This document shows, piece by piece, positions 11,641 through 49,266 of a stretch of 52,997 nucleotides of DNA. Each line of letters begins with the position of its first letter. Positions within the stretch are counted from its first letter, which is position 1. The notes beneath the pieces were generated by a model. The model searched no databases. It was not told the origin of the DNA and worked only from the letters and a program-made list of their open reading frames with translations. A program made the translations under genes and the position numbers. This stretch comes from a virus (taxonomy: Duplodnaviria > Caudoviricetes). The stretch is from positions 1 to 52,997 of IMG/VR virus record IMGVR_UViG_3300009506_000043, one strand, 5' to 3'.

Positions 11641-11920
11641 CGTCCTTTAGTGCAGCCTCCTTCTTCATTCGCTGATAGGTGCGAACCAAGTGAACATGGT
11701 AGAACTCTCGGAAGTGGCCGAGAGCATAGACGAGTAATCCGTAGGCGCCTTCACTGACATTCGGAGGGCGCCGGCGGAAATTCAGAGGCTTGCCGGATTC
11801 CTTGTAGCAGACTTTGCCGTCAACCAACTCGACAAGCCGAATGACCTGATAAACCCACCAGACATCCTCGACGATCGAACCCTCAGAGACAGCCTTATTC
11901 AGACTGATTGCGGGCTGCAA
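11453..11920 (-). CDS. Putative terminase small subunit
   Basis: Directly upstream of and overlapping terL; start uncertain (TTG at 11920 proposed instead of 12211). Confidence 0.45.
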   Translation of the reverse strand: MQPAISLNKAVSEGSIVEDVWWVYQVIRLVELVDGKVCYKESGKPLNFRRRPPNVSEGAYGLLVYALGHFREFYHVHLVRTYQRMKKEAALKDDGRRQFELLDQIDQYLVEEANAARQCSTCGRPLGEADRILPRSERAIRQSGVSQEDSGSGGV

Positions 11921-14900
11921 TGATTTCTCGACGCGCTGTTGCTCTCGCTGTCGTGAAGGCCGCTTCGATTTTCTTAATGTCTCGGGCGGTGGGAGGGTCG
12001 TGGAAGTTGATGCGATTGGCGCGCTCAAGGGCGATCTCTCCTGATCGCTGCACGTATCGCTCGTATTCACCTGTCGACAGTAATTCCTTTCTGCCACGGA
12101 TTGTAATGAAGGGCTTCGGCAGACTGGGATGATATTGCAGGTCCCGTTCCGCTTCGGTCTGATGGGCCTGATTCCATTCCCAAAGCACAACATCTGCGGG
12201 GACTCGCTCACTCAGCCGCTTACCCAGCTTGACTGGTGAGATAACACGATACCACCAGGGAGTGGCTGGTGAAGAAGGCTGGATCACCCGACCCCATTTG
12301 TCGTACTTGTGAATCACGCCAGAGACAGGCAACTCGGCCTTCGCGAGCGTCTTGCGAACCTTAGTGCCAAAGTCGTCACCCTTGCGAATCCGGGTGTCAT
12401 ACACCTCATTGCGACCAACTCGCCAGGGCTGCCGAATGATGTTTGGTACAAATCCAACCAGGACATTCTGAGTCAACTGCGGAATGCCAGAAGCCTCTGG
12501 ATCGGTGAATGCGTTCACGATATCCCCGAGGTTCTGCAGGAAAGTCTTGTCCGTGATCTGCCGCAGGAATGCATCCCATTGAGAATCCGTAAGCGACTTG
12601 CCTTTCTGCCGATTATCCAGAAAGTCAATGATCGCTGGCAGGATTGTCGAGGCTGGTTCGAGGCCGGCATAGCTGAAGAATTGCTGGCCACCCCACGGAT
12701 ATCGGATGGAAAGTGGCGGTGCAACTGCCCAGGCTAGATCACGCGCGAGATAGTTGCGCGGTGAGCTGCCGGTGATGACGGGCGTGTCGTCATCACCCCC
12801 ATAGTACAAGCTGGCAACAGCAGCCGTAATTGCACCCCCAACCATCTGTCGTGCCAGGATCTTATTGAAATTCACTTCATGGCCGTGTTTCTCACTACAG
12901 AGTCGCCAGAGGGGCCAGAGCCCGATCCCTGGAAGTCGGGCCATTGCCGCCTCAAAGTTGTTGAGGGGAAAGTTATAGGTGGGAATCAGGAAGCGCCCAA
13001 ATGGCAGCTTGCGAAGACCTCTCGCCGCCTTCTTTAGTTTCTGCGTGCCAGACCACCCAGCCTGCATGAATGTGGCTTCTAATGCCTCATTGTACGCCAG
13101 CGTCCACGCAGTCGAGCGTCGATCCTTCATGGCGCTTTCGATGTAGCGGGCCATGTGCTGCTTATCGAGTCCAAATCGCTTGGCCTGGCGGTAGGCATGG
13201 GCACCGACCACAGAGTAAGCGTAGATCGTCTTGAACATATCATCAGAGGCGCTGAGTGGCCGCCAGCCAAAGCTTCGCACAAAGCGACCCCATGTGCCTT
13301 TGAGGGCAAACCGTCTATTAAGTACCTCGGTCTTGTAGACATCCCAATCTTGGGCAGCGTAATTCGTGGTGATCCCCAGCTGTTCCGCCAATGCGGATTG
13401 CTCATATGCCCAAGTGCTGGCAAAGTTACGGAGCCCTGGAGCAAGGCCCGCCCACATTCCCTTCAGGATGTATTTGAATTCGCCGAGCTGGGCCCCGGAT
13501 ACTTTCTTGCCAAAGAACTGCTGAGCCGCTTCATTCAGAAGTGCCTCGACGAATCGCTCCGGCCCCAACATCAGCAGGCCGAATCCGGTGTTGGAAATGG
13601 CATTCTTCGCATGTGTATGGGGGCCGCTGAAGATCGAATTGCTGTAGAACTCAAACATCTTGTCGGCCCAGGTTCCGCCCGCCCGCTCGATCATGATGAC
13701 ATTGATCAGCTGCATTGTTGCCAGCTCATCCTGGAGGGCGTCTTGCATCTGGTCAATGCTGATCTCCAACTCCCTGAGCCTCTCCAGGATAGCCCAAGTC
13801 GTTTCTGGGCTGTCAGTATCGAAGATGGCTTCCATGATTTTGCGGGCTCGCTTTGCAACGGGAGAACCCATGCAGATTGGATCGCGCATGTTCAAGACGC
13901 GGCTGATCCAACTTCGGGCCTCGCGGCGATAACGAGACAGATACCACGCATCATCAGCAGCCTCGCGACTGCCAAGTGCGCCGACCGTCATCGCATCGTT
14001 TAAGACCATGTTGATCACGACCATTTCCTCTTCCCATTTCCGAGGATCGTTGCCGAGATCAGCGTGTTCATGTGCCTTCATGTACTCCAGAATTCGATTT
14101 TTCTCCCCGTCGGCATCAGCCTGAACTCTTTTAGCGGCCTTCGCTTCAGCCTCGGCATGGGGATGATACTCGGGCGGGCCGATCTCTTCATCATATTTGT
14201 ACTGGAGGGTGCGACCGGCGATCGTCGTGACCGTATTGGCCCGACCAAGATAACGCTGACGTTCCATGAAGGAACGCATCGCATCGGTCTGGGTAATGCC
14301 CTCCCAGTTGACTCTGGGAGGTGGTTCGCTGGGAGCGAACATCAGAGTAGGTCCCACTCCGGCAATGGCACGACCGCTTATCCCTGGCGGGACTCGTTCA
14401 GCAATCCTTGCAAGACGCGCTTCACCAGCTCGCGTCTCTGTTCCGGGGAGAGGGCCGGTTGGGACGGGCGGCGCTTGGAGTCTTGCCGCCTTGCGGAGAT
14501 TCTTTGGAGCAACTGCTCGGAGTTTTCTGAGGGCTTGTTGGATTTCGGGATCATTTAACAACTCCGCGAATTCAGGAACGGCAGCAATGCTTTCCTGCCT
14601 GAGGGCCTTCACGACCTCCTTGCCCTTGGCTTTGGCCTTCTCCCCGATTTTAGCAGCTGAGGCGGCTTTCAGGAAGGACCAGATGGCGGATTGTGCCTCG
14701 GCAGGTTCAATGTTCAGCTGCTGGGCTGCGCGACGCACAACGGCAGTCAGGGCCAGGTAGAGGGTATGGGAATCAAAGGCGTTATCGGGTCGAACTCCAA
14801 AGAATTCGGCGAGCCAGCGGTCGACCGTCACGGCAGATAGGTCGCCAAGGAGATTCTTGCGAAAACTACGGACCTTCCAGCCGCTCAGCTCCGCGTTCAA

Positions 14901-17900
14901 GGGATTAACCTCAGAAAACGCAGTCACAAGATTGTTTACACTTGCCCCCAATACTTTCGGCTGGAGCCCCAAGAGAAACTCACGAACCTTGTCCGGCTCA
15001 AATGGCTCACCAGCCTCTTCCCAAGCATCCCAAATACGGAGCGCTTCCTTCAGATTCGTCTGTGCGCTGCGCTGTGGAGACGTGGCGGCTAACACATTTA
15101 CGAAACGCGGCGCCTGATCTCCGAAGATGGTAAACAGTGCCTGATGGGCGAATTGATACCACTCTTGCTTGGCGGCGCCGGCCTGAGCGGCGGCGACTGC
15201 TTCCCCGGTCTTGCCTTTGAGTCCCTCGAAGTGTTGAACCACTCGCTGTAGATAAGCCGGCCCAAGACCCCCCAATTCCTCCTCGGTTAGGTAGCGGGCA
15301 ACAGCTGGGGCCGTGAATGTGAAGAGTCCTTTGTCGCCGGCCTGCTGTGCTTCGATCAAGGATAGGAGCGTCTCCCGTACCTGCTGATCGTCAACCGAGA
15401 ATTTATGGTGAGCCTCTTCGCTGAGTTGATCAGCTATCTCCTGCAGCCATTGGTTATATCCGGTCCAGTCATCATCGGTCCAATTCTGAGAAACAAGAAA
15501 CATTCGCTGACTGTAACTGAGCGGCGCATTGGGAGCCTCTTGCCGCTGATGACTGTCCGGCGGCCCATAAAGGGCATCATTCAGCACTTCGGTAAACAGG
15601 TCGACGTCCTGGGTCAGATCGAGAATCTTCTCGTCACCCTGCCGAATGAGAGCGAAGGCGCGTGCCGCGTAATCCGGCTCCTCTGTGGCTGAGACCCCCT
15701 CTTCGTATCCCACGCCGCCCATAATGTCGGGAAACTCTGCGGCGACCGCTCGGCCAATCGTGTCCCACGGCACATCCATGCTTGAATGGTCCTTGCCGGC
15801 ATTCTCGACCTTGCTTAACGTGATCTTGGTCTGGCCGCTCTTGGCCCGAAGCATTTTGCGGGCAGCATTGCGGCGCCGCTTGGGATCGTACTTGAGTGCG
15901 TGCCGTTCACGCAGGTCCTTCAGAATCTCCTTGGTCCATTCCTCCTTTCGCTCGGGCGTAACGGTCTGGTTTTCCTGTGCAGCCCAAGCGTCAATTGCTT
16001 CATCTATCCGCGCCATTGCCAGGGCCTGGCCATTGACGTCATTACTCGGGCGGCCTGGACCTTTGATCAGTTCCGCCCGGCGAGCCGCAACCCGATCTCG
16101 CTGCTCCTTCAATTCATTCAAGACCGCCAGGGCATCAGGATCAGTAAGGTTCTTGGCTCGCCCGAACAACTTCAATAGGGCATCCACCAACCGCTGCCAC
16201 AATGTCGGCTGCTCTTGTAGTAACTGCTCACGGAAGGCGCCATCTGTGAAGAAGGTGCCGACCATCTCGGCCATTGCTTCCCGCCAATACCAGTCCGTCT
16301 TGTTGCCTTTGTCGTCGATCAGGTATTTGCGATACCCGGTCATATCGGGCGGCAGTCTTTTCATGTACTGCTGACCGAACTGATCAAGGCGCGCCTCTCC
16401 CACCAGAGCCTTCAAGACGTCCACTTCAGTAGCATGGGCCAGCTCGTGGCCGGCGGTGTACCAAATTGCCTCCTCAGCGGCTCGCTCGTCCAAGTAGAGT
16501 ACGCGAGGCCCTCGCACTCGTTCATCGACAAAGGAGATTTCTGCGGTGCTCGTGATAATGCGGACGTCATGCCCGAATGCTTGGGCTAATTGCTGCGCCG
16601 CCTTTTCTTGCGAAGAAGACGGTTCCCGCATCGAGGTAACTTCCACAGGCACGCCGAGTTCTTTCATCCGGTCATTGAGCTGTTCCAGCGATAACACCGC
16701 AGGTGGTGCGAGCGGGGGCTTGGCCTTCTCTGGAGCGGCGGGGACGGGCTGTATTTCCGTACCGGTGAAAAACTCCCCGAATCGCTTTCGGAGAATCCTG
16801 CGAACCTTGTCGTAATCGTAGTCCCTCATCCCCCTCCCCATGTCTTGCCGAATGTCAGACATGAGTGCTGGTACGCCTCCGAAACCGTACTGATGGAAGG
16901 TTGGATCGCCACGCTCAATCACATCGAAACGACCCATTACCTTATCAGTAAACGGCTGGTCCTCGTTGAGAGTGGAACCTTGTGGGACATCTAACAGCTC
17001 ACCAAACTCCGCCTCTATCTCCTGGGATATACGATCTGCTTTGTCCTTACTGCCAAGGTAGATGGTATAGTCTTTACCTTTCTGTCCACTACTGCGGCCC
17101 TCCTTGAATAAAACTCCCTTCTCTCTCAGCTTCTGCGTAACCGCATCCCTATTCTCCTTCGAGACGGCTAAATGCAACTTCCAGCCAGCACCCTCTACTG
17201 CCATGTCTTTGTGCATATCAGGAGCATTCGGGCTGCCGGCTGGTGGAACGTAGTATCCAGGAGTCTTCGCCGGCTGACTTACTGGTATTTGCGGGACGAC
17301 GGCTTCGACCTCGGCAGCTGCTGTTGCTGGACCCAACTCCCCAGGCGTCAGCTCCTGATAACGACCAGTGCGCTCAACCATGCGCTGGGCGAGCGCCCGC
17401 CTGATCGTGTCCTCATCCTGCTGGAGATCCTCCTTGCTCAAGGGATAGCCCATTGCCTTCGCAGCCGATGCCAGCCCTTCTTTGTCCAGATCCCTCAGCT
17501 GGTCATATTGGCGCTGGGCGCGTTCTGAAAGTGGGGCTGGCGCTGCCCCTACTTGTGCTTCCGGTGCTTGCTGTGCTTCGGCTTCCGCCCCGTGGCGTAG
17601 CTCAGGCCGGTTTTCGCCTGGGCGATTCTGATCGCTGATCCCTCCGAGTACCCCTTCGCCTGTAGGTGGCGCTTCAGGCGGGCGACTTTCGAGTTTTTCG
17701 GCATGACTGATCTCCTTCTGATAGGGTTTGACTTGCTTAGCCAGGATCTCCCGAATCATCGATTCGCGGGACCGAACTTTTGGAAATCCAAATCTCTTGG
17801 CAATATCCCACTTTGACATTGCCTCCAATTCCTGACGAATAGCATCCTCGGCTTCAGGAAAGGCCAGAACCTTTTCCTTCTGAGCCTCTGGAAGCTCCAG

Positions 17901-19676
17901 CACGCGGAGAAAAGATGGACCACCTCTTGGTGCCTGTTGTGCCGCGAGCCGCTCTTTAGACATCTGGACGATTCTGGCGCGGGCCAGGGCGTCCAGCCCC
18001 AGGTCGGCCAGGTTCTTCCTTGGAACCCCTGCAGCTTCAGCAAACTGGGTCCGGGTAGGAATCTCTGGTAGGTTAGCGAGTGCGTCCCATTGGTCGGGAT
18101 GTTGACTAATGAAGTCGCGGGCCAACTGCGTCCTTTTGTGCTCAGCCGATACTTCCGCCTCGGGAATTTCCTCGACCGGAGTTGGTTCGGGGGTTTCCGT
18201 GGCCGGAATTGGCTCGGGGGCGAGAACCTCCTGAACAGCGGCTTGAAACTCAGTCGGCTCGGCTGCAGGTTCGGCCGGCGGCGCTTCCGTGGCCTTTTCC
18301 CGTTCCTTCCTTGCCGCCGCCAGTCGCTCGCGGAAGTCTTTGGCTAAAGTGATCTGCGGGCCTTCCCCCAGCGCCTCCCTTATCACAGCGGCCCCAGCAG
18401 GGATCCCAAGGAAGCCCAGATACTGAGACATCAGATCGACAGCCAAATCCTTGTAGCGACCTTCCTTGATTTCCTCCAATGTTCGACTGTCGCCAGGCGA
18501 GACCGTCGCGGCTCGGGCAAACTCCTCAAAATACTCTTCCACCATTTCAAGCGGAGGTGCCTGCAGCTGCGTGCGCTTGGCGAATTTGGCGACCTTGCCC
18601 TTACCGAAAATGCTGGCGTGCTTGTTCATCATGAATTGCGCCAGCTTCTTGGGAAAATAGCCCTTCTGCGCCATCTTCCGGGTGGTTCCGCTGATCGTGC
18701 CACCAAGTGCCTCTGAGGCAGCCGTGATCGATTGGCCGATGAATGCCTTGGAGTAGGCAGTCAGTGGGCTTTCGCCTTCCGTCAATCGACGGCGCTCGGC
18801 CTCGGCGGCGATTTGCTGAGGCATGCCAAGGGCCTGGACGGCAGATCGAGCAACGACGGCGGCCACGCGGCCAGAAAGCTTGCGCGTAACGCCCTTAATG
18901 CCGGCCTTGGTGGCGGCTCGCATCGTCATCTTCGCGGCCCCTGCTCCGGCGCGAGCGGCCAGGCCGGCGGGCAGTGCGAATTCGGCAACATAACCTGGCA
19001 GCGAGGTCATGATATCAACGCCGCCCTGCGTCACTCGCTTATACCAGGCTTTCTGATCCTGATTCTCGTGCCAGCGATTCTCCTGGATGAATTGCCCAAG
19101 AAGTAGGTAATCACCTGAATCAGCTTCACCGGCATTGAAGCGATTGACGGCACCTCGGAGTTTGACCAGCTCACCGACTTCTACGCCGGTCCCCACAAAA
19201 GGAATTCTGCTGACCCAATACTTGAGGTTCTCGCGATTAGTCGAGAGATCCTCGAACATGGCCATTGCGCTCAGGAGTCGCTTTTCGGGCAGGGCCTGGT
19301 CATCTGCCCAATCATTCGGCTGAACGCGAGTGTAGGAGGCCAACCATTCGTCCTGATCAATTTGGCCTAGGGCAAATCGATAGTCCTCGGAGCTGCCCTG
19401 CCCTGCGCCTACACGGCGAATTGCTACCTGGGTCGGACGAAGGCCGCTTTCTAATCCGGCTTGAATGTCTTCGGGGACGGCAAACTCAATCTGCTGAGTG
19501 AGTTTGCCAATCCCCTGAGAGGCAGTCTCCATCAGCTTTGAGAGCGGCTTCTGTTCTCCATTGGCGGCTTGCCGGGGACCTTCCTTAAAGAGTCGCTGCA
19601 GACCCTCGTGTGAAATCTCAAGTCCATCGCCGAGAATCCATTTTGTGCCATCCCAGGTTGCGGGTATTTGGGCCAT
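11895..19676 (-). CDS. Giant multidomain internal virion (ejection) protein, polyvalent-protein-like
   Basis: 2593 aa; HELAH zincin motif, GWKLHL..GKDYTIY module, WY..AATSPQ..KVRSF..VTVDRW..QSAIW module, helical C-terminal core-protein region. Confidence 0.75.
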   Translation of the reverse strand: MAQIPATWDGTKWILGDGLEISHEGLQRLFKEGPRQAANGEQKPLSKLMETASQGIGKLTQQIEFAVPEDIQAGLESGLRPTQVAIRRVGAGQGSSEDYRFALGQIDQDEWLASYTRVQPNDWADDQALPEKRLLSAMAMFEDLSTNRENLKYWVSRIPFVGTGVEVGELVKLRGAVNRFNAGEADSGDYLLLGQFIQENRWHENQDQKAWYKRVTQGGVDIMTSLPGYVAEFALPAGLAARAGAGAAKMTMRAATKAGIKGVTRKLSGRVAAVVARSAVQALGMPQQIAAEAERRRLTEGESPLTAYSKAFIGQSITAASEALGGTISGTTRKMAQKGYFPKKLAQFMMNKHASIFGKGKVAKFAKRTQLQAPPLEMVEEYFEEFARAATVSPGDSRTLEEIKEGRYKDLAVDLMSQYLGFLGIPAGAAVIREALGEGPQITLAKDFRERLAAARKEREKATEAPPAEPAAEPTEFQAAVQEVLAPEPIPATETPEPTPVEEIPEAEVSAEHKRTQLARDFISQHPDQWDALANLPEIPTRTQFAEAAGVPRKNLADLGLDALARARIVQMSKERLAAQQAPRGGPSFLRVLELPEAQKEKVLAFPEAEDAIRQELEAMSKWDIAKRFGFPKVRSRESMIREILAKQVKPYQKEISHAEKLESRPPEAPPTGEGVLGGISDQNRPGENRPELRHGAEAEAQQAPEAQVGAAPAPLSERAQRQYDQLRDLDKEGLASAAKAMGYPLSKEDLQQDEDTIRRALAQRMVERTGRYQELTPGELGPATAAAEVEAVVPQIPVSQPAKTPGYYVPPAGSPNAPDMHKDMAVEGAGWKLHLAVSKENRDAVTQKLREKGVLFKEGRSSGQKGKDYTIYLGSKDKADRISQEIEAEFGELLDVPQGSTLNEDQPFTDKVMGRFDVIERGDPTFHQYGFGGVPALMSDIRQDMGRGMRDYDYDKVRRILRKRFGEFFTGTEIQPVPAAPEKAKPPLAPPAVLSLEQLNDRMKELGVPVEVTSMREPSSSQEKAAQQLAQAFGHDVRIITSTAEISFVDERVRGPRVLYLDERAAEEAIWYTAGHELAHATEVDVLKALVGEARLDQFGQQYMKRLPPDMTGYRKYLIDDKGNKTDWYWREAMAEMVGTFFTDGAFREQLLQEQPTLWQRLVDALLKLFGRAKNLTDPDALAVLNELKEQRDRVAARRAELIKGPGRPSNDVNGQALAMARIDEAIDAWAAQENQTVTPERKEEWTKEILKDLRERHALKYDPKRRRNAARKMLRAKSGQTKITLSKVENAGKDHSSMDVPWDTIGRAVAAEFPDIMGGVGYEEGVSATEEPDYAARAFALIRQGDEKILDLTQDVDLFTEVLNDALYGPPDSHQRQEAPNAPLSYSQRMFLVSQNWTDDDWTGYNQWLQEIADQLSEEAHHKFSVDDQQVRETLLSLIEAQQAGDKGLFTFTAPAVARYLTEEELGGLGPAYLQRVVQHFEGLKGKTGEAVAAAQAGAAKQEWYQFAHQALFTIFGDQAPRFVNVLAATSPQRSAQTNLKEALRIWDAWEEAGEPFEPDKVREFLLGLQPKVLGASVNNLVTAFSEVNPLNAELSGWKVRSFRKNLLGDLSAVTVDRWLAEFFGVRPDNAFDSHTLYLALTAVVRRAAQQLNIEPAEAQSAIWSFLKAASAAKIGEKAKAKGKEVVKALRQESIAAVPEFAELLNDPEIQQALRKLRAVAPKNLRKAARLQAPPVPTGPLPGTETRAGEARLARIAERVPPGISGRAIAGVGPTLMFAPSEPPPRVNWEGITQTDAMRSFMERQRYLGRANTVTTIAGRTLQYKYDEEIGPPEYHPHAEAEAKAAKRVQADADGEKNRILEYMKAHEHADLGNDPRKWEEEMVVINMVLNDAMTVGALGSREAADDAWYLSRYRREARSWISRVLNMRDPICMGSPVAKRARKIMEAIFDTDSPETTWAILERLRELEISIDQMQDALQDELATMQLINVIMIERAGGTWADKMFEFYSNSIFSGPHTHAKNAISNTGFGLLMLGPERFVEALLNEAAQQFFGKKVSGAQLGEFKYILKGMWAGLAPGLRNFASTWAYEQSALAEQLGITTNYAAQDWDVYKTEVLNRRFALKGTWGRFVRSFGWRPLSASDDMFKTIYAYSVVGAHAYRQAKRFGLDKQHMARYIESAMKDRRSTAWTLAYNEALEATFMQAGWSGTQKLKKAARGLRKLPFGRFLIPTYNFPLNNFEAAMARLPGIGLWPLWRLCSEKHGHEVNFNKILARQMVGGAITAAVASLYYGGDDDTPVITGSSPRNYLARDLAWAVAPPLSIRYPWGGQQFFSYAGLEPASTILPAIIDFLDNRQKGKSLTDSQWDAFLRQITDKTFLQNLGDIVNAFTDPEASGIPQLTQNVLVGFVPNIIRQPWRVGRNEVYDTRIRKGDDFGTKVRKTLAKAELPVSGVIHKYDKWGRVIQPSSPATPWWYRVISPVKLGKRLSERVPADVVLWEWNQAHQTEAERDLQYHPSLPKPFITIRGRKELLSTGEYERYVQRSGEIALERANRINFHDPPTARDIKKIEAAFTTARATARREIIAARNQSE

Positions 19677-38087: not shown

Positions 38088-38714
38088 TCACCCCTCCTGA
38101 CCCCCGGCGGTGAAGCCAAGGGCTTCTTCGGTATCTGCGACCAAGTTAGCCTCTTCATCGATTGTCCAGCCAATGAGCCACCGGTTCAGTAACTCTTTCA
38201 GCCGCTGATTATCCTCACGAAGTTGTGCCTCCCTGCCGCGCACTTTATCGACGATGGCAAACTGGCTGACGACGATCTGAGCCATTTGGTTCTCGGTAGA
38301 ATCAAGACACTCTTGCGAACCTCGTTCCAGCTTGGTGACTACTCGACGCAAGTTGGTGAGGATTTCGTTTTTCGTTTCCATCCCAGCCATCCTTTCTGGG
38401 TTAGTCACCTTCACAAATCCAAGAAGGTCGTCGTTAAACTCCTGCAGTGCCACATGGGCGATCGCTTGACATTGATCAAGCGCGACAGCGCGCCCCTCAA
38501 GGTATGCCTCTCTCATATCCGCTGGACCCCTCAAGGGAACGCGACAAATCTTCTTCAGCGCCTTCAGTAGGATTTCCTGGCGCCGGATCAATTCAGCGTT
38601 GCGTTCAATATCGTTCATCACAGCCTTCCTTTGCACCGATGGAATCCATATGGCCCGGCCAAACTCGGCTTGCTTGCGCGATTCGGGATCGGGTGGCAGT
38701 TGATCAATCCCCAT
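38088..38714 (-). CDS. Coiled-coil hypothetical protein
   Basis: Start reassigned to MGIDQ after AAGGAGG; the longer 311-aa call runs through the pentamer array. Confidence 0.6.
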   Translation of the reverse strand: MGIDQLPPDPESRKQAEFGRAIWIPSVQRKAVMNDIERNAELIRRQEILLKALKKICRVPLRGPADMREAYLEGRAVALDQCQAIAHVALQEFNDDLLGFVKVTNPERMAGMETKNEILTNLRRVVTKLERGSQECLDSTENQMAQIVVSQFAIVDKVRGREAQLREDNQRLKELLNRWLIGWTIDEEANLVADTEEALGFTAGGQEG

Positions 38715-38735
38715 CTCACCCGCCTCCTTCACGCT

Positions 38736-38830
38736 GTCTTGTCTTGTGCAGTCCGAAGATGTCAGGGCTGATGTCGTCCAGTCGTATGGCATGCGATGCC
38801 GTGTGGTGAAGTGCGGTCGTGCCGCGTCAT
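38736..38830 (-). ncRNA. Pentamer-periodic array 2 (candidate guide RNA), 19 units
   Basis: Plus-strand units gtctt gtctt gtgca gtccg aagat gtcag ggctg atgtc gtcca gtcgt atggc atgcg atgcc gtgtg gtgaa gtgcg gtcgt gccgc gtcat; pattern R-T-S-N-N. Confidence 0.7.
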
Positions 38831-39330
38831 AACTTCTTGTTATTCCCATCCGAGAACAGCCGTAGGGTATCTCCGATCGCCAGCCGACCATTACGGGCCG
38901 TGACCGCCCCGAGTAACTTCTGTTGCGACTTCGGGCGCATGAACAGTGCCACGGTGCCAAGTACACTGGCGGCCAGGCTGTGGCGTGTCTGGGCCTCCTC
39001 GGGTAGTTTGTCGAATTCAACACGCTCCAGGCGCCAAAGCTTTCGCTTGGTCAGCCGCTTGAGTGAGGTCATGGATTGGTCGCTGACGCTGGCCTGCTCC
39101 TGGGGCGTGAGTAGTTTGATTCCTTGGCGCGGGATGCAGTCAAACAGGCGGCCGGTTTCGCGCTCGGCTATTTTGCGGGCAGTCATCAGGCAACCGCGCA
39201 TCTCCTTAGTGACGTCGGCGCCGGCGATGACGCTCAACACCCCGTAGCTGATTAACTCATAATCATTATGCTCGACCGACTCAATCAGTCGCCGGGCAAG
39301 CATCTGTGCTTCGATTTTCGGTGTAAACAT
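38827..39330 (-). CDS. Accessory protein of RAMP locus (possible winged-helix N-terminus)
   Basis: 167 aa, GAGG RBS, lies between the two arrays. Confidence 0.7.
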   Translation of the reverse strand: MFTPKIEAQMLARRLIESVEHNDYELISYGVLSVIAGADVTKEMRGCLMTARKIAERETGRLFDCIPRQGIKLLTPQEQASVSDQSMTSLKRLTKRKLWRLERVEFDKLPEEAQTRHSLAASVLGTVALFMRPKSQQKLLGAVTARNGRLAIGDTLRLFSDGNNKKL

Positions 39331-39349
39331 GATCGTTCCTCGTAAACAT

Positions 39350-39569
39350 GAGTTGTGTTGTCAGGTGCGGCGTCGTCGAATGTAGTCGTGAGCGATTGAG
39401 TCGCTCGTTGTCTAATGTGAACTTGGGGCATCGAATTCTGTCGGATGGAGTGACGTGAGGTGATGACTAGATGAGATTCGTCCCATGATGTCTAGATTCG
39501 TCTTGAGAAAACCCATTGAGATGCGTGTCGTGATGAAACGATTCATGAAGATGCGTGTCATGGTGTAGT
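39350..39569 (-). ncRNA. Pentamer-periodic array 1 (candidate guide RNA or RNAs), 44 units
   Basis: Intergenic; in 5-nt phase from 39350, position 1 is purine in 43/44 units, position 2 is A/T in 41/44, position 3 is not A in 42/44, positions 4-5 vary. Confidence 0.7.
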
Positions 39570-39583
39570 TCCCAGAATGACTC

Positions 39584-40141
39584 TTAGCTCCAGTCGACCT
39601 TTAGGACGTCGAATCGACCATAGAATCCGTTGTTGCTGGGCCGGAATGTACCGAGTCCGATGAATTGTCCCGCATCGCGCAATGTGAGTTCAAAAATCTC
39701 CTCGGTAATGATGTCATCTAACACCAGCACCTCGGCAATCGCTTCCCACTTCATGATGCGAGGAAAGATTTTCCATACTCGGCCCTTACCGCCCCGCTTG
39801 CCGTCAGCCGGCACGTACAGGTGAAATTTGTCAACCTTCTCCAATGGGACTCCAAGCAGCAGGGGCTCGACGCAGAGGATGCCGGCCACGAAGTGCTTTG
39901 TATACTTCTGGTTGCCCTTGCCGGGAATTTTCATGCTTTTGTAAGACGCGGCCTCGGAGAGACAGTTCTTCAGTGCCATTGGCGGAATGAAGACCTCTCC
40001 CTCTTCAGTGACATGCGCCTTGCGCTTCCAGATGCGCTCCTCCCAATCCTCCCAAGTCGCATCCCTAGGCTTTGTCTCGGGCACTGGCGCCGACTGACAC
40101 ATCGGCGTCACGGACTTGAGTAGACAAACTGCAGTCTTCAT
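39584..40141 (-). CDS. Stand-alone Cas7/RAMP-like RNA-binding protein
   Basis: N-terminal strand LKSVTPM, VFIPPMALKNCL (cf. RAMP IPGSSLKG), C-terminal Gly loop GQFIGLGTFRP..GFYGRFDV. Confidence 0.75.
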   Translation of the reverse strand: MKTAVCLLKSVTPMCQSAPVPETKPRDATWEDWEERIWKRKAHVTEEGEVFIPPMALKNCLSEAASYKSMKIPGKGNQKYTKHFVAGILCVEPLLLGVPLEKVDKFHLYVPADGKRGGKGRVWKIFPRIMKWEAIAEVLVLDDIITEEIFELTLRDAGQFIGLGTFRPSNNGFYGRFDVLKVDWS

Positions 40142-40160
40142 GGGTCTCTCCTAGACTAGG

Positions 40161-40205
40161 GACGGGTTCTGACGGGTTCTGACGGGTTCTGACCAGTGTG
40201 GCCAT
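40161..40205 (-). repeat. (AGAACCCGTC)x3 tandem repeat / 9 pentamer units in RAMP 5' leader
   Basis: Plus strand gacgg gttct gacgg gttct gacgg gttct gacca gtgtg gccat. Confidence 0.8.
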
Positions 40206-40492
40206 TACCAAAACTCCTGGCATCGGTTGGCTTCCTCCACGTTGCTTTGAAACCAACCGACTTGAAACGGATCAATGATCTCATACCACCACTCAATCCT
40301 CGTCGTCAGAATCTGGCGGCCGTCTGGCAGCTGAAATACAAGCATGTCTCCTTCATTGCGATAACAGAAAGCATCGCAGTATTCGACGGGAATGAAGATG
40401 CTCGCCGGGCTCTGCGGAATGTAGACAATCATCACTTCCGACTCATACGGATGCAGGATGATCAACGCTGCTACGATCCACGGCCTGGTCAC
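40205..40492 (-). CDS. Hypothetical protein
   Basis: 95 aa, coupled overlap with upstream gene. Confidence 0.5.
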   Translation of the reverse strand: MTRPWIVAALIILHPYESEVMIVYIPQSPASIFIPVEYCDAFCYRNEGDMLVFQLPDGRQILTTRIEWWYEIIDPFQVGWFQSNVEEANRCQEFW

Positions 40493-46430: not shown

Positions 46431-47336
46431 CTAATCGGGCATTTCGAGTGGAATGGTTTTTCCCCAACCTTGAGGAAACCAGTTGTCGGTCTCATAACGC
46501 TGCAGCAGTTCGTCGAGCCAGGTATCAGCTCGCCACCGACCGAAGGCGAGAAAACGCGGCGTGTCCTCGTAGACGTACACGTCGTAGGGCGGGCTGTTGC
46601 GAATCACGACCCAGACGAACCGCCAGCCAGTCTTTCCGGTCAGCGCTTCAATGGCTTCGAGATAAGTGACCGCCTGGACGTCGTAGCAGTACCGCTTGCA
46701 CGCCCACCGGAACGGGTAAGGCTCGGGATCCTGGGCGGTCTTGACGTCCACGACGAGCTGCGGGCGCCAGAGAACAAGGTCCAGTTCAGCCTTGCGACCG
46801 ACCTCTGTCCGAGGGCATTCCCAGAAGATTTGTACGTTCCAATCGTGCTTCAGCCGGCCAAACAGGAGACTGTTGGCAGCTTCATGACTGCGCAGATTGG
46901 CCAGGACTTGCGTGTAGCAACCCCACTTGCCGTAGCGATCTTCGATTTCAGGAGAGGTGAGGAGCTCGGCGCCTGCCGGTTGCGAGTCCCGGTAGTTAAT
47001 CCAGGCGGATCCCTTGCGATGCCCATCGGCATTCAGAGCGGTGGAGGGGATGTGGCGGATCGTCGAGGGGCAGCCCCCGGATCGGATGGCCGCCTCGCAC
47101 GCGATTCCCCAGGCTTGAGATGGGGTTGGGTCACTGGGCGGAACGATCTTCTGGACGCGGGTCCGCCAGTACAACAGAGGCGCCTGGTGAGCGAAAACCA
47201 CGTCACTCTGGGCGAGCAGCCGATGGTCTCTGTACTCTTGAGCGCCTAAGCAGACTCTCAATGCGCCGTTCACCGGATCCCCGCGCTTCGGTGGAGTCCG
47301 GCAGCACTGTACGGTCTTGGGGGTGCCAGAGGTCAT
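46431..47336 (-). CDS. RecE/DUF3799-like PD-(D/E)XK exonuclease
   Basis: KAELDLV..VVDVKT..YCYDVQAVTY..FVWVVI..PPY; true start may be ~47273. Confidence 0.85.
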   Translation of the reverse strand: MTSGTPKTVQCCRTPPKRGDPVNGALRVCLGAQEYRDHRLLAQSDVVFAHQAPLLYWRTRVQKIVPPSDPTPSQAWGIACEAAIRSGGCPSTIRHIPSTALNADGHRKGSAWINYRDSQPAGAELLTSPEIEDRYGKWGCYTQVLANLRSHEAANSLLFGRLKHDWNVQIFWECPRTEVGRKAELDLVLWRPQLVVDVKTAQDPEPYPFRWACKRYCYDVQAVTYLEAIEALTGKTGWRFVWVVIRNSPPYDVYVYEDTPRFLAFGRWRADTWLDELLQRYETDNWFPQGWGKTIPLEMPD

Positions 47337-47436
47337 AGCCGGCCCTCAGGCGTTGAGAGAGGATTTTGATCTTTCGACGACTCCCCGGTCGGGCGTCGGT
47401 CGGCGTCGGCGGATCCCCGATTGGAATCCAATCCAC
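47203..47436 (-). CDS. Small protein with PT-x-A-x-PGS..KI..R..G..LWHPxD motif
   Basis: PTPTDARPGSRRKIKILSQRLRAGYDLWHPQD resembles a family I recall from planctomycetes; overlaps both neighbours. Confidence 0.45.
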   Translation of the reverse strand: MDWIPIGDPPTPTDARPGSRRKIKILSQRLRAGYDLWHPQDRTVLPDSTEARGSGERRIESLLRRSRVQRPSAARPE

Positions 47437-47671
47437 AAACCTTCTCAGGTTCCCGACTGCGAGAAAGTGCTCGATGCAGTTCCTCGGTTTGTTGTTCAGG
47501 CAGTTGTCGTCTAATGAGGACATCATGTGGAGCCCAGATAGATGAATGAACGCACTTTCCCCGCACCGATGAGACCATCACTTCGATGATGACCTCGGCA
47601 GGCATTGGGGGGACGATCAAGTAGAAGCACTCGCCCGTCTTGCGAGCAATCGTCAGCCGACCATGCGGCAC
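47333..47671 (-). CDS. csrA: CsrA/RsmA-like RNA-binding protein with C-terminal extension
   Basis: LTIARKTGE..IEVMVSSVRGKCVHSSIWAPHDVLIRR aligns with CsrA [36 protein letters not shown]. Confidence 0.7.
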   Translation of the reverse strand: MPHGRLTIARKTGECFYLIVPPMPAEVIIEVMVSSVRGKCVHSSIWAPHDVLIRRQLPEQQTEELHRALSRSREPEKVCGLDSNRGSADADRRPTGESSKDQNPLSTPEGRL

Positions 47672-47772: not shown

Positions 47773-47808
47773 TGTCACTTCCTGTCACTTCCTGTCACTT
47801 CCTGTCAC
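47773..47808. repeat. 10-bp tandem repeat (TGTCACTTCC)x3.6
   Basis: Degenerate copies also at 48041-48067 and an inverted copy at ~48099-48109. Confidence 0.85.
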
Positions 47809-47997: not shown

Positions 47998-48042
47998 CGT
48001 TCTGGCAGGGGCACCACAACCCCCTGCCGAGGGGCGATTTTG

Positions 48043-49266
48043 TCACTTCCTGGCACTTTCTGTCACTATTTCCTGGGAAATTCGGATTGACTTGCGGCCA
48101 GGAAGTGACTTTGGCACTCTATGCCGGCGCCGAGATGCTTCGCTTTTTACTTCGCCCTCTTCGACCGCCAGTCTCAAGTGCTCCTCCGTCACTTGCAGGT
48201 AGTGTTGCTCGGCGACGCGGCTGGAATGACCGATCCAACCGGCGACAACATGCGAGGGGAATCTATCATTTAATTCTGTCTCTCTGCTCGATCGCATGTT
48301 TTGAAAAAGCTTCGGCCAAGGTATAATACCACGACTCCGCAAAGCGCGCTTGACTCTGTGGTAAACCGTGGGCCCTGTCATCGTCGGATCGTCGATAATC
48401 TGACCCTTAGACTCATGTTGCCAGCGCCGACTCAAAACCTCCCTGACGTCGGGGAAGAGTGGAATCATCCGAATTCGGCAATGCGGGTGCCTGGCCGTCT
48501 TCTGGCAGGTCACACGAAGCGTCCCGCCTTCCCAGTCAATATCAGCCCAGTCGAGCGGGAGGACCTCAGAGGGCACCCTGAGGCCTCCAAAACGGGCCAG
48601 GACGGCGACCAAATACGAGTCGTCATCCAGATCGTCGGCCAGGCTGCGGATCGATTCCTGGGGTACCCAGACGCGCCTAGCGGCCAGATCCGGCTTCGGG
48701 GGCCGAATGCCGGCGAATGGATTGACTGGCAGCCACTGTTTGGCCACGGCCGCCGCGAAGAACTGGCCGGCCTGCCGAAACCGACTCTCCACTGTGGCAG
48801 TCGAAAGCGGCTCGCCCTTGACCGCACCATGCTGGCTGAGCCAAACCAAAAACTCTTGCGCGTCTCCCCGGCTGACCGATCCAATCAATCGATCCGGGCC
48901 GAAAAAAGTCAGGAGATTTCTCTTTACCTTAGCGTGAATTTTTTGGGTAGAGGAATTGACCTGGACAGTTCGGCTGGCGTAGTCAAGCAAGGCGGCCAGC
49001 GTGGCCTGTGGGGCTTCCTCAAGGACCCCAAGCCGGGCGAGACGTTGTGTCATTTGCGGACTCAGGCCTGTGACCCAGGCCCTGGTTTCAGGGTCAAGCG
49101 GCAGGCCGAGCCGCCTTGTGCTCAGAATCATGTCGATGCGCCTCGCGAGTTGCTGCGCTTGGCGCCTCGACGCAACGCCGAGTCGCAGAGTTTGCCGCGA
49201 CCCGTTGAGGTTCCGAAATTGAATCCACACATGGCCTTTCGGCCTCCTGACAACTGACGCCATCAT
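48043..49266 (-). CDS. int: Tyrosine integrase
   Basis: RFGGLRVPSE (R), KT (K), QNMRSS (HxxR variant), WIGHS, HY (Y); start MMASV after GGAGG. Confidence 0.92.
   Translation of the reverse strand: MMASVVRRPKGHVWIQFRNLNGSRQTLRLGVASRRQAQQLARRIDMILSTRRLGLPLDPETRAWVTGLSPQMTQRLARLGVLEEAPQATLAALLDYASRTVQVNSSTQKIHAKVKRNLLTFFGPDRLIGSVSRGDAQEFLVWLSQHGAVKGEPLSTATVESRFRQAGQFFAAAVAKQWLPVNPFAGIRPPKPDLAARRVWVPQESIRSLADDLDDDSYLVAVLARFGGLRVPSEVLPLDWADIDWEGGTLRVTCQKTARHPHCRIRMIPLFPDVREVLSRRWQHESKGQIIDDPTMTGPTVYHRVKRALRSRGIIPWPKLFQNMRSSRETELNDRFPSHVVAGWIGHSSRVAEQHYLQVTEEHLRLAVEEGEVKSEASRRRHRVPKSLPGRKSIRISQEIVTESARK

Follow-up and report, generated by a model that had tools for sequence, protein, structure and literature searches.

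A 220-base tract of period-5 units in an uncultured marine-sediment phage is very probably a vrRNA array of a non-canonical VIPR system

A 220-base intergenic tract in the DNA of an uncultured phage very probably represents the vrRNA array of a VIPR system whose fixed triplet is a non-canonical S-A-Y. VIPR was first described in 2026 preprints from the Doudna laboratory (PMC13142463). The kind has been in print since April 2026; the window (the whole stretch of DNA analyzed, 52,997 bp) holds a new non-canonical member of it, not a new kind. Published loci are phage-borne and consist in their minimal form of vipr and one accessory gene, vap, which is predicted to bind DNA in types II, VI, and VII (PMC13142463). 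Their vrRNAs carry 9-16 YNNGG repeats, up to about 30, followed by a conserved 3' tail; the NN bases recognize DNA, skipping one target base, and the vrRNAs serve to repress competing phages, satellites, and other VIPRs (PMC13142463). DNA silencing programmed by NN has been shown by experiment in related systems (PMC13142463). An earlier reading of the window, made from the sequence alone, had taken the tract for a set of guides with their information in NN, in agreement with the published mechanism.

The window, which originates from a marine-sediment metagenome, constitutes a complete virus record and has terminal repeats; the stretch is present in two of the three DNA runs listed, all from one marine-sediment study. 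Its genes, nearly all on the minus strand, include an integrase, an excisionase-like gene, a RecE-like exonuclease, a replication initiator, a RusA-like resolvase, a terminase, and tail genes; the host virus of the arrays is a temperate phage. Among annotated phages, we found neither a DNA match to the window nor a protein match (tblastn, 50,697 phage records). In minus-strand order, the locus holds a 185-aa gene (P0001), array 1, a 167-aa gene (P0002), array 2, and a 208-aa gene whose relatives are absent from the collected loci. The features are as follows:

39584..40141, minus strand: vipr, encoding a minimal Cas7-like RAMP of 185 aa (P0001); identified from the open reading frame, the structural model, and the family profile
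39515..39569, minus strand: array 1, proposed vrRNA-1 guide tract, 11 pentamers (units 1-11); boundary placed by the tail-like motif after the units
39505..39514, minus strand: proposed vrRNA-1 tail or boundary, a U-rich module end, sense GGGUUUUCUC, resembling the ...AAGG(U)UUU module ends of relatives
39425..39504, minus strand: array 1, proposed vrRNA-2 guide tract, 16 pentamers (units 14-29), from the sequence
39415..39424, minus strand: proposed second internal boundary, sense AAGUUCACAU, resembling the AAGGUUU(U/C)AC ends between modules of the related locus L022; weaker than the first boundary
39350..39414, minus strand: array 1, proposed vrRNA-3 guide tract, 13 pentamers (units 32-44), the last two NN being AA, as in relatives
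39337..39349, minus strand: end of array 1, sense AUGUUUAC, with the GAGGA ribosome-binding site of the next gene, from the sequence
38827..39330, minus strand: vap-like accessory gene of 167 aa (P0002), with an N-terminal winged helix and a helical C-terminal half; assigned from the model and the position after vipr
38736..38825, minus strand: array 2, 18 pentamers, ending AAGAC AAGAC and followed by the AAGGAGG site of the next gene; period-5 z 10.8, 0/5000 shuffles

Array 1 keeps one phase through 44 units, with no indel across its 220 nt (39350-39569). When read as plus-strand pentamers, it bore out the phase R-W-B-N-N proposed by the sequence-only reading: R at position 1 in 43/44 units (G31, A12), W at position 2 in 41/44 (T28, A13), and B at position 3 in 42/44 (G20, C13, T9). 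A permutation test of the positional bias, which that reading had called for, was clearly significant. The period-5 information amounted to 1.94 bits as compared to 0.20 +/- 0.08 in shuffles (z 20.6, 0/2000 shuffles; z 20.9, 0/5000); period 10 gave a harmonic (z 12.8), and all other periods from 2 to 12 stayed at |z| <1.7. The series of sense NN dinucleotides that we extracted independently was identical to the one given before, and the tract escaped Tandem Repeats Finder at a minimum score of 30, as had been predicted. Its placement directly between two genes was likewise as described: the RAMP stop codon (39584-39586) lies 14 nt from the array start, and the array ends 8 nt before GAGGA (39337-39341), which precedes the ATG at 39328-39330. 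It could be argued that such periodicity arises by chance or from base composition, or that the tract encodes protein, since two same-strand short ORFs of 48 and 49 aa overlap it. A period of 5 is, however, incompatible with a reading frame, none of 5000 shuffles equaled the observed signal (z ~21), and the feature is conserved next to members of one gene family in over 160 loci. The shuffles and the conservation thus refute this explanation, to which we assign next to no probability.

The triplets of array 1 are loose, with GAC in 9, CAC in 8, CAT in 6, and ATC in 6 units and ten others, giving 14 kinds in 44 units. Array 2 is tighter, and S-A-Y occupies 15/18 of its units (GAC 7, CAC 4, CAT 4). 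The fixed triplet of the window arrays is thus not the canonical GGY, and GAC, CAC, CAT, and ATC are found instead. The seven VIPR types have been defined by "GGY/NN or a related consensus" (PMC13142463), and the accessible part of a study using a genomic language model describes 21 period-5 clusters with non-canonical units, e.g., GAC/NN and CAC/NN, beside Vipr-like folds (10.64898/2026.10.21.760802). Because a related consensus and such arrays are published, the non-GGY triplet excludes only the canonical VIPR subclass.

Array 1 probably comprises three guides of 11, 16, and 13 units separated by short U-rich tails of about 8-10 nt, as judged by comparison with the module ends of relatives. 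The U-rich sense segment UGGGUUUUCUC, pointed out before as a possible divider, is present at 39505-39515 and resembles the motif found at the 3' end of modules in relatives, where AA-rich final units are typical as well. With array 2, the proposed division of the window arrays yields 11, 16, 13, and 18 units per guide. We also found GATGCGTGTC at both 39520 and 39550, a recurrence that had been ascribed to growth by duplication or recombination; this idea gains support from near-identical relatives, the arrays of which differ by whole units and duplicated blocks.

A sliding scan of the whole genome returned four segments above the mean + 4 SD, namely, array 1, array 2 (38711-38850), and two exact 10-nt tandem repeats. 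No Rfam family reached its gathering score anywhere in the window, and none appeared at E up to 1 in 38500-40400. In a test of RNA structure, MFE z-scores lay near 0 across 142 modules (median -0.87 for GGC, +0.7 for GAC, and -0.6 for CGC) and were 0.39 and 0.04 for the window arrays, so this test was uninformative.

Several other elements of the window were recorded alongside the scan. An exact 10-nt tandem repeat of 3.3 copies (40161-40193, sense GTCAGAACCC) adjoins the vipr ribosome-binding site on its upstream side, in the place that a vrRNA array occupies in relatives; written as pentamers it reads NN+GTC / NN+AAC, and it may represent either a degenerate guide or an operator. Three tandem copies of TGTCACTTCC, accompanied by looser copies at a distance of about 250 nt (47773-47808 and 48033-48070), lie between the integrase gene and the first early-operon gene; these are probably repressor or operator sites. 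The first early gene itself (47333-47671, minus strand) gave a weak CsrA-like match below the Pfam cut-off (E 0.004), and a clear CsrA-like regulator (phrog_9500, E 3.9e-10) is encoded two genes downstream of the VIPR cassette in a related locus (L003:5401-5907). Among the structural genes, a single open frame of 2593 aa (11895-19676, minus strand) matched only phrog_3842, of unknown function, over residues 1499-1670.

The gene upstream of array 1 had been called a RAMP, and the structural comparisons agree. P0001 had no match in Pfam, NCBIfam, or PADLOC and belongs to phrog_4652 (E 2.1e-10). Its model (pLDDT 90.8) matched only Cas7-type RAMPs, over residues 1-185. The best Foldseek match was the type VII Cas7 8z4j_J (E 3e-8), with Csm3 also found, and the best match in VIA-align was Csm3 6ae2_B (Z 11.4), the first 36 rows being CRISPR RAMPs throughout. 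When a family profile built from 22 members (A1) was compared with the PDB, it identified 36pp_D, the "SUSP1 Vipr protein," at E 1.8e-8, followed by the next entry at E 0.1; this alignment pairs residues 95-181 with 107-189 and covers the C-terminal half only. The family shares a conserved G-loop, GxGxFRPxNNGxYGRF, and a G/K/R-rich hairpin at 110-126, and P0001 retains all 34 invariant columns of the A1 alignment, on a long branch of 1.48. The model and the profile thus predict that P0001 is a Vipr, a minimal RAMP that combines a single RRM core with a glycine-rich loop and a thumb.

The partner gene P0002 had no Pfam match. Its model (pLDDT 93.2) shows an N-terminal winged helix followed by helical hairpins, and the fold matches were weak (MarR-like 4nb5, E 0.05; NSE1, Z 7.4; ScpB winged helix, Z 6.6). 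In 61/76 sources (75 loci and the window), the RAMP gene is followed by a member of the P0002 family, and a divergent second family takes this position in 9 more. Prediction of Vipr-partner binding returned "no answer" (score 0.00), which counts neither way.

The arrangement of the window recurs among relatives of P0001. The family comprises 709 proteins at E up to 0.001 out of 797 candidates, and period-5 tracts flank the gene in 75 viral loci. Each of the 75 anchors (74 viral loci and the window) carries arrays of 10 or more units in the interval from -600 to +2500 nt around the gene. A second set, drawn from genome and metagenome contigs, gave an array in 88/101 loci with the gene; the other 13, many of them on short contigs, had only a weak array or lacked one. 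Read on the sense strand, the units of relatives consist of NN and a fixed triplet, which is GGC in most and GAC or CGC in others; the GGC handle accounts for 67/127 non-redundant loci of the clade. The GAC type does not cluster on the protein tree (7 changes for 8 rows), and according to MAG bins the hosts of the family are very diverse.

Distinct modules of at least 12 units (n = 159) have a median of 18 units (IQR 15-21, maximum 42). All 16 dinucleotides occur at their NN positions, with near-uniform composition. Modules of relatives end in AA-rich units, usually with a U-run, the common ending being ...AAGRC AAGG(U) UUU. The NN positions are hypervariable between close relatives, as is evident from L011 and L012 (L numbers denote collected loci), whose flanks are 98.9-100% identical and whose arrays of 37 and 29 units differ in NN order. 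Multi-module arrays reach ~1 kb, with locus-specific linkers between the modules.

Linkers of 30-46 nt between guide tracts were seen in L013:3630-5090, L065:3690-4870, L021:2737-2880, L066, L069, and L074, and the L013 linker holds a 7-bp hairpin. Locus-specific linkers of this sort are probably clade-specific vrRNA tails. Period-5 signals of another character were found at L051:5085-5319 (CCT/GGG/GCG) and L013:1-820 (CAG/CCT/CCG). Each has three equally frequent triplets and thus a repeat length of 15 nt; the signals do not resemble vrRNA arrays, and they may represent repeats within coding sequence.

The genes that lie downstream of the cassette encode, among others, terminase, portal, head, Sak4, Erf, RecT, SSB, SbcC-like, integrase, and methyltransferase proteins. 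Because these genes are so heterogeneous (47 proteins scanned of 104 downstream ORFs listed), a role of the cassette as late-gene regulator was rejected.

The NN-gap-NN search with gaps of 0-3, which the sequence-only reading had proposed, is also the test used by the VIPR authors (PMC13142463). We compared 480 distinct arrays with 1.66 Mb of collected loci in which the arrays had been masked. At a skip of 1, there were 56 matched segments of 12 or more units, as compared to 1, 1, and 6 at skips 0, 2, and 3; the same test with shuffled unit order gave 2, 0, 0, and 2 at skips 0-3. This excess rests on few guides (L095, L163, L148, L109, and L035), and among the 58 listed skip-1 segments (at least 11 units), 50 come from the one CGC-type guide of L095. 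In 50 sources, that guide matches the part of vipr that encodes the G-loop; these sources include the locus of the guide itself (23/26) and the window (39609-39646, minus strand; 24/26 informative bases), and the skipped base falls on the wobble position of the codon. Judging by these sequences, it looks like an anti-VIPR guide directed against the most conserved part of rivals' vipr. In the accessible part of a related study, vrRNAs are described as targeting rivals' vipr genes near their ends (10.64898/2026.10.15.759431). A GAC-type guide, L163:1895-1979, matches the minus strand of vipr in L130, L142, L143, and L155 at 28/28 or 26/26 informative bases. The matches of L163 and L095 together demonstrate that non-GGY arrays of the clade follow the same 1-nt skip rule.

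For the clade, the search thus gave an excess at gap 1 only; for the guides of the window, it gave none. Their best match within their own genome reached 16/20 informative bases at gaps of 0-3 and was equaled by shuffled unit order, and in the 181 collected loci we found only a 6-unit seed at skip 1. Four exact 10-unit patterns derived from the window guides had 0 hits each in IMG/VR, a search by exact matching that misses mismatched targets.

The skip-1 matches also bear on a different explanation of the tract, according to which it is a cis-acting leader: the RAMP would coat the intergenic RNA, one triplet per protomer, and control the translation or stability of what lies downstream, with NN serving as spacers. 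TRAP, which binds (G/U)AG repeats, is the model for such a leader. Such a leader would be expected to lie immediately 5' of a ribosome-binding site, as the arrays do (in relatives, also at the RAMP gene itself), and the arrays that run into the Shine-Dalgarno sequence (e.g., L016 and L009) and the near-uniform NN composition would fit it as well. In contrast, spacers would not be expected to match the vipr of other loci at a 1-nt skip far beyond shuffles, nor does a leader account for multi-module arrays of up to ~1 kb with locus-specific linkers, and NN-programmed DNA silencing is published for related systems. We therefore consider a leader function quite improbable as the main role of the tract and favor guide arrays, which may still have a regulatory side effect on neighboring genes. 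The ideas of a TRAP-like attenuation leader, a Rho-shielding antitermination RNA, and a TMV-like assembly origin were dropped because the NN strings match foreign vipr under the 1-nt skip rule.

Across the clade, the identity of the fixed triplet appears from the alignments to co-vary with Vipr residues aligned to R138 and D177 of SUSP1, which is possibly a new result. The accessible part of the SUSP1 study reports one Vipr protomer per repeat, names the base-contacting residues, and describes R138 and D177 as contacting guanines, with alanine mutants abolishing silencing (10.64898/2026.04.26.720927). In our alignment, Vipr positions 126 and 165 correspond to R138 and D177. In the first set, all 8 CGC-type proteins carried L110 and Y126, and all 34 GGC-type proteins carried V110 and F126. 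The independent second set agreed: 7/7 L/Y proteins had CGC arrays and 2/2 V/Y proteins had C-first arrays, and of 87 V/F proteins, 72 had G-first arrays, 13 no or a weak array, 2 CTC or ATT, and 0 CGC. Over 127 non-redundant loci, a C-first triplet went with Y126 in 17/21 and with a non-Val residue at 110 in 18/21, and a G-first triplet with V110/F126 in 103/105. The second base followed position 165, as R165 was present in 68/68 GG-triplet loci (67/67 of GGC type, 64 of those with E106) and in 7 of the 31 GAC-type loci, the other 24 having F, S, V, or another residue. The base contacted by each of 126 and 165 appears to be swapped relative to SUSP1.

The handle changed about 10 times on the tree at the first base and 15 times at the second, and GGC, GAC, and CGC handles interchange often in the clade. 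A strict independent-pairs test left 4 pairs for the first base and 6 for the second on well-supported branches, too few for a sign test to attain significance at 0.05 (median p 0.125 and 0.5); no pair ran opposite for Y126 or R165. No mention of the triplet-residue co-variation was found in the accessible text of 10.64898/2026.04.26.720927, supplements aside. The accessible text of 10.64898/2026.10.15.759431 describes the hijack of Vipr by solo vrRNAs, and we found no mention of orthogonality in it. Tentatively, and with somewhat less than even confidence, we read these data jointly as a re-settable "handle code": the triplet would be read by few Vipr residues, and switching it would make VIPR systems orthogonal and so let a phage escape hijack of its Vipr by the solo vrRNAs of satellites and rivals. 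The window protein, with F106/V110/F126/T165, would then accept the relaxed S-A-Y. If residues 106, 110, 126, and 165 set handle specificity, mutually orthogonal Vipr-vrRNA pairs become engineerable, and a phage-satellite arms race over guide loading becomes testable.

The relaxed triplet could also mean that the locus of the window is decaying or partly inactive, with selection relaxed and some or all guides no longer loading or targeting. The variety of triplets in array 1, the long branch of the protein, the targets not found for the window guides in their own genome, in the collected loci, or by exact patterns in IMG/VR, and the exact 10-nt repeat found where relatives carry an upstream array would all fit such a state. 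The frames of vipr and vap are intact, however, and the invariant A1 columns are complete in P0001. Moreover, S-A-Y persists through most of array 2, array 1 keeps its phase unbroken, and F106 and T165 fit a non-GGC handle. We regard decay as unlikely, albeit a little less so than a leader function, and continue with the reading of the arrays as those of a VIPR system.

We infer expression, processing, filament assembly, and silencing in the window phage from homology and from the anatomy shared with the SUSP1 and Pseudomonas fulva systems. The operon transcript would be cut into RNAs of roughly 60-110 nt, and each pentamer would be bound by one Vipr protomer. The fixed triplet, S-A-Y (GAC, CAC, or CAT; ATC is commoner in array 1), would be buried, and the two free NN bases would be displayed toward the target. 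The NN bases of the filament would then pair with the double-stranded DNA of a competing phage, a satellite, or a rival VIPR locus, skipping every third target base, and transcription of the target would be repressed. With VIPR, the RNA-guided recognition of DNA has a second logic, one that is non-contiguous and has been proposed to be older than CRISPR. The window extends the known systems by a temperate phage that comes from marine sediment, is uncultured, and has S-A-Y, a non-GGY handle. Intergenic tracts of period 5 that lie next to small RAMP-like genes can thereby be classified as VIPR arrays.

Among known systems, the backbones of class 1 CRISPR (Csm3/Cmr4/Cas7 and type VII Cas7) share the fold of P0001 (Z 9-11.4), and they form a helical RAMP filament on a guide RNA, as predicted for the window, in which pairing is broken at regular intervals by a thumb. 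Cas7 covers 6 nt per protomer without sequence preference, and 5/6 of the guide bases pair. In the window, by contrast, the period is 5 nt, and three bases would be read by the protein and two would pair. No Cas family match was found in the eight genes nearest the locus (PADLOC, NCBIfam) or in 18 genes searched with Pfam. CRISPR-Cas class 1 was ruled out, the window having no repeat-spacer array and only the period-5 arrays and the two 10-nt repeats. TIGR-Tas (PMC12045711), compared by description only, resembles the window in its phage-associated tandem guide arrays missed by ordinary repeat finders and differs, as quoted in another study, in an 18-nt period and in a Nop-domain protein in place of a RAMP.

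The closest described counterparts are VIPR systems themselves. Like Escherichia phage SUSP1 and the P. fulva prophage (type II VIPR), the window has a phage-borne locus in which a small single-RRM RAMP precedes an accessory gene, predicted to bind DNA in those systems and putatively so in the window, and its intergenic sense-strand pentamers combine a fixed triplet with hypervariable NN and, as proposed for array 1, several guides per array. The clade also shares with them the 1-nt skip, with the skipped base on the codon wobble position. The window differs from these systems in its S-A-Y triplet versus their GGY and in its proposed tails, which are short and U-rich versus a pseudoknot of roughly 40 nt. 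P0001 is distant from SUSP1 Vipr (profile E 1.8e-8, C-terminal half), and the G-contacting R138 and D177 of the latter align with F126 and T165 of the window. In the same way as the VIPR-like arrays found by a genomic language model, as described in the accessible part of that report (10.64898/2026.10.21.760802), the window pairs period-5 GAC/NN or CAC/NN units with a Vipr-like fold and thus falls into this non-canonical class.
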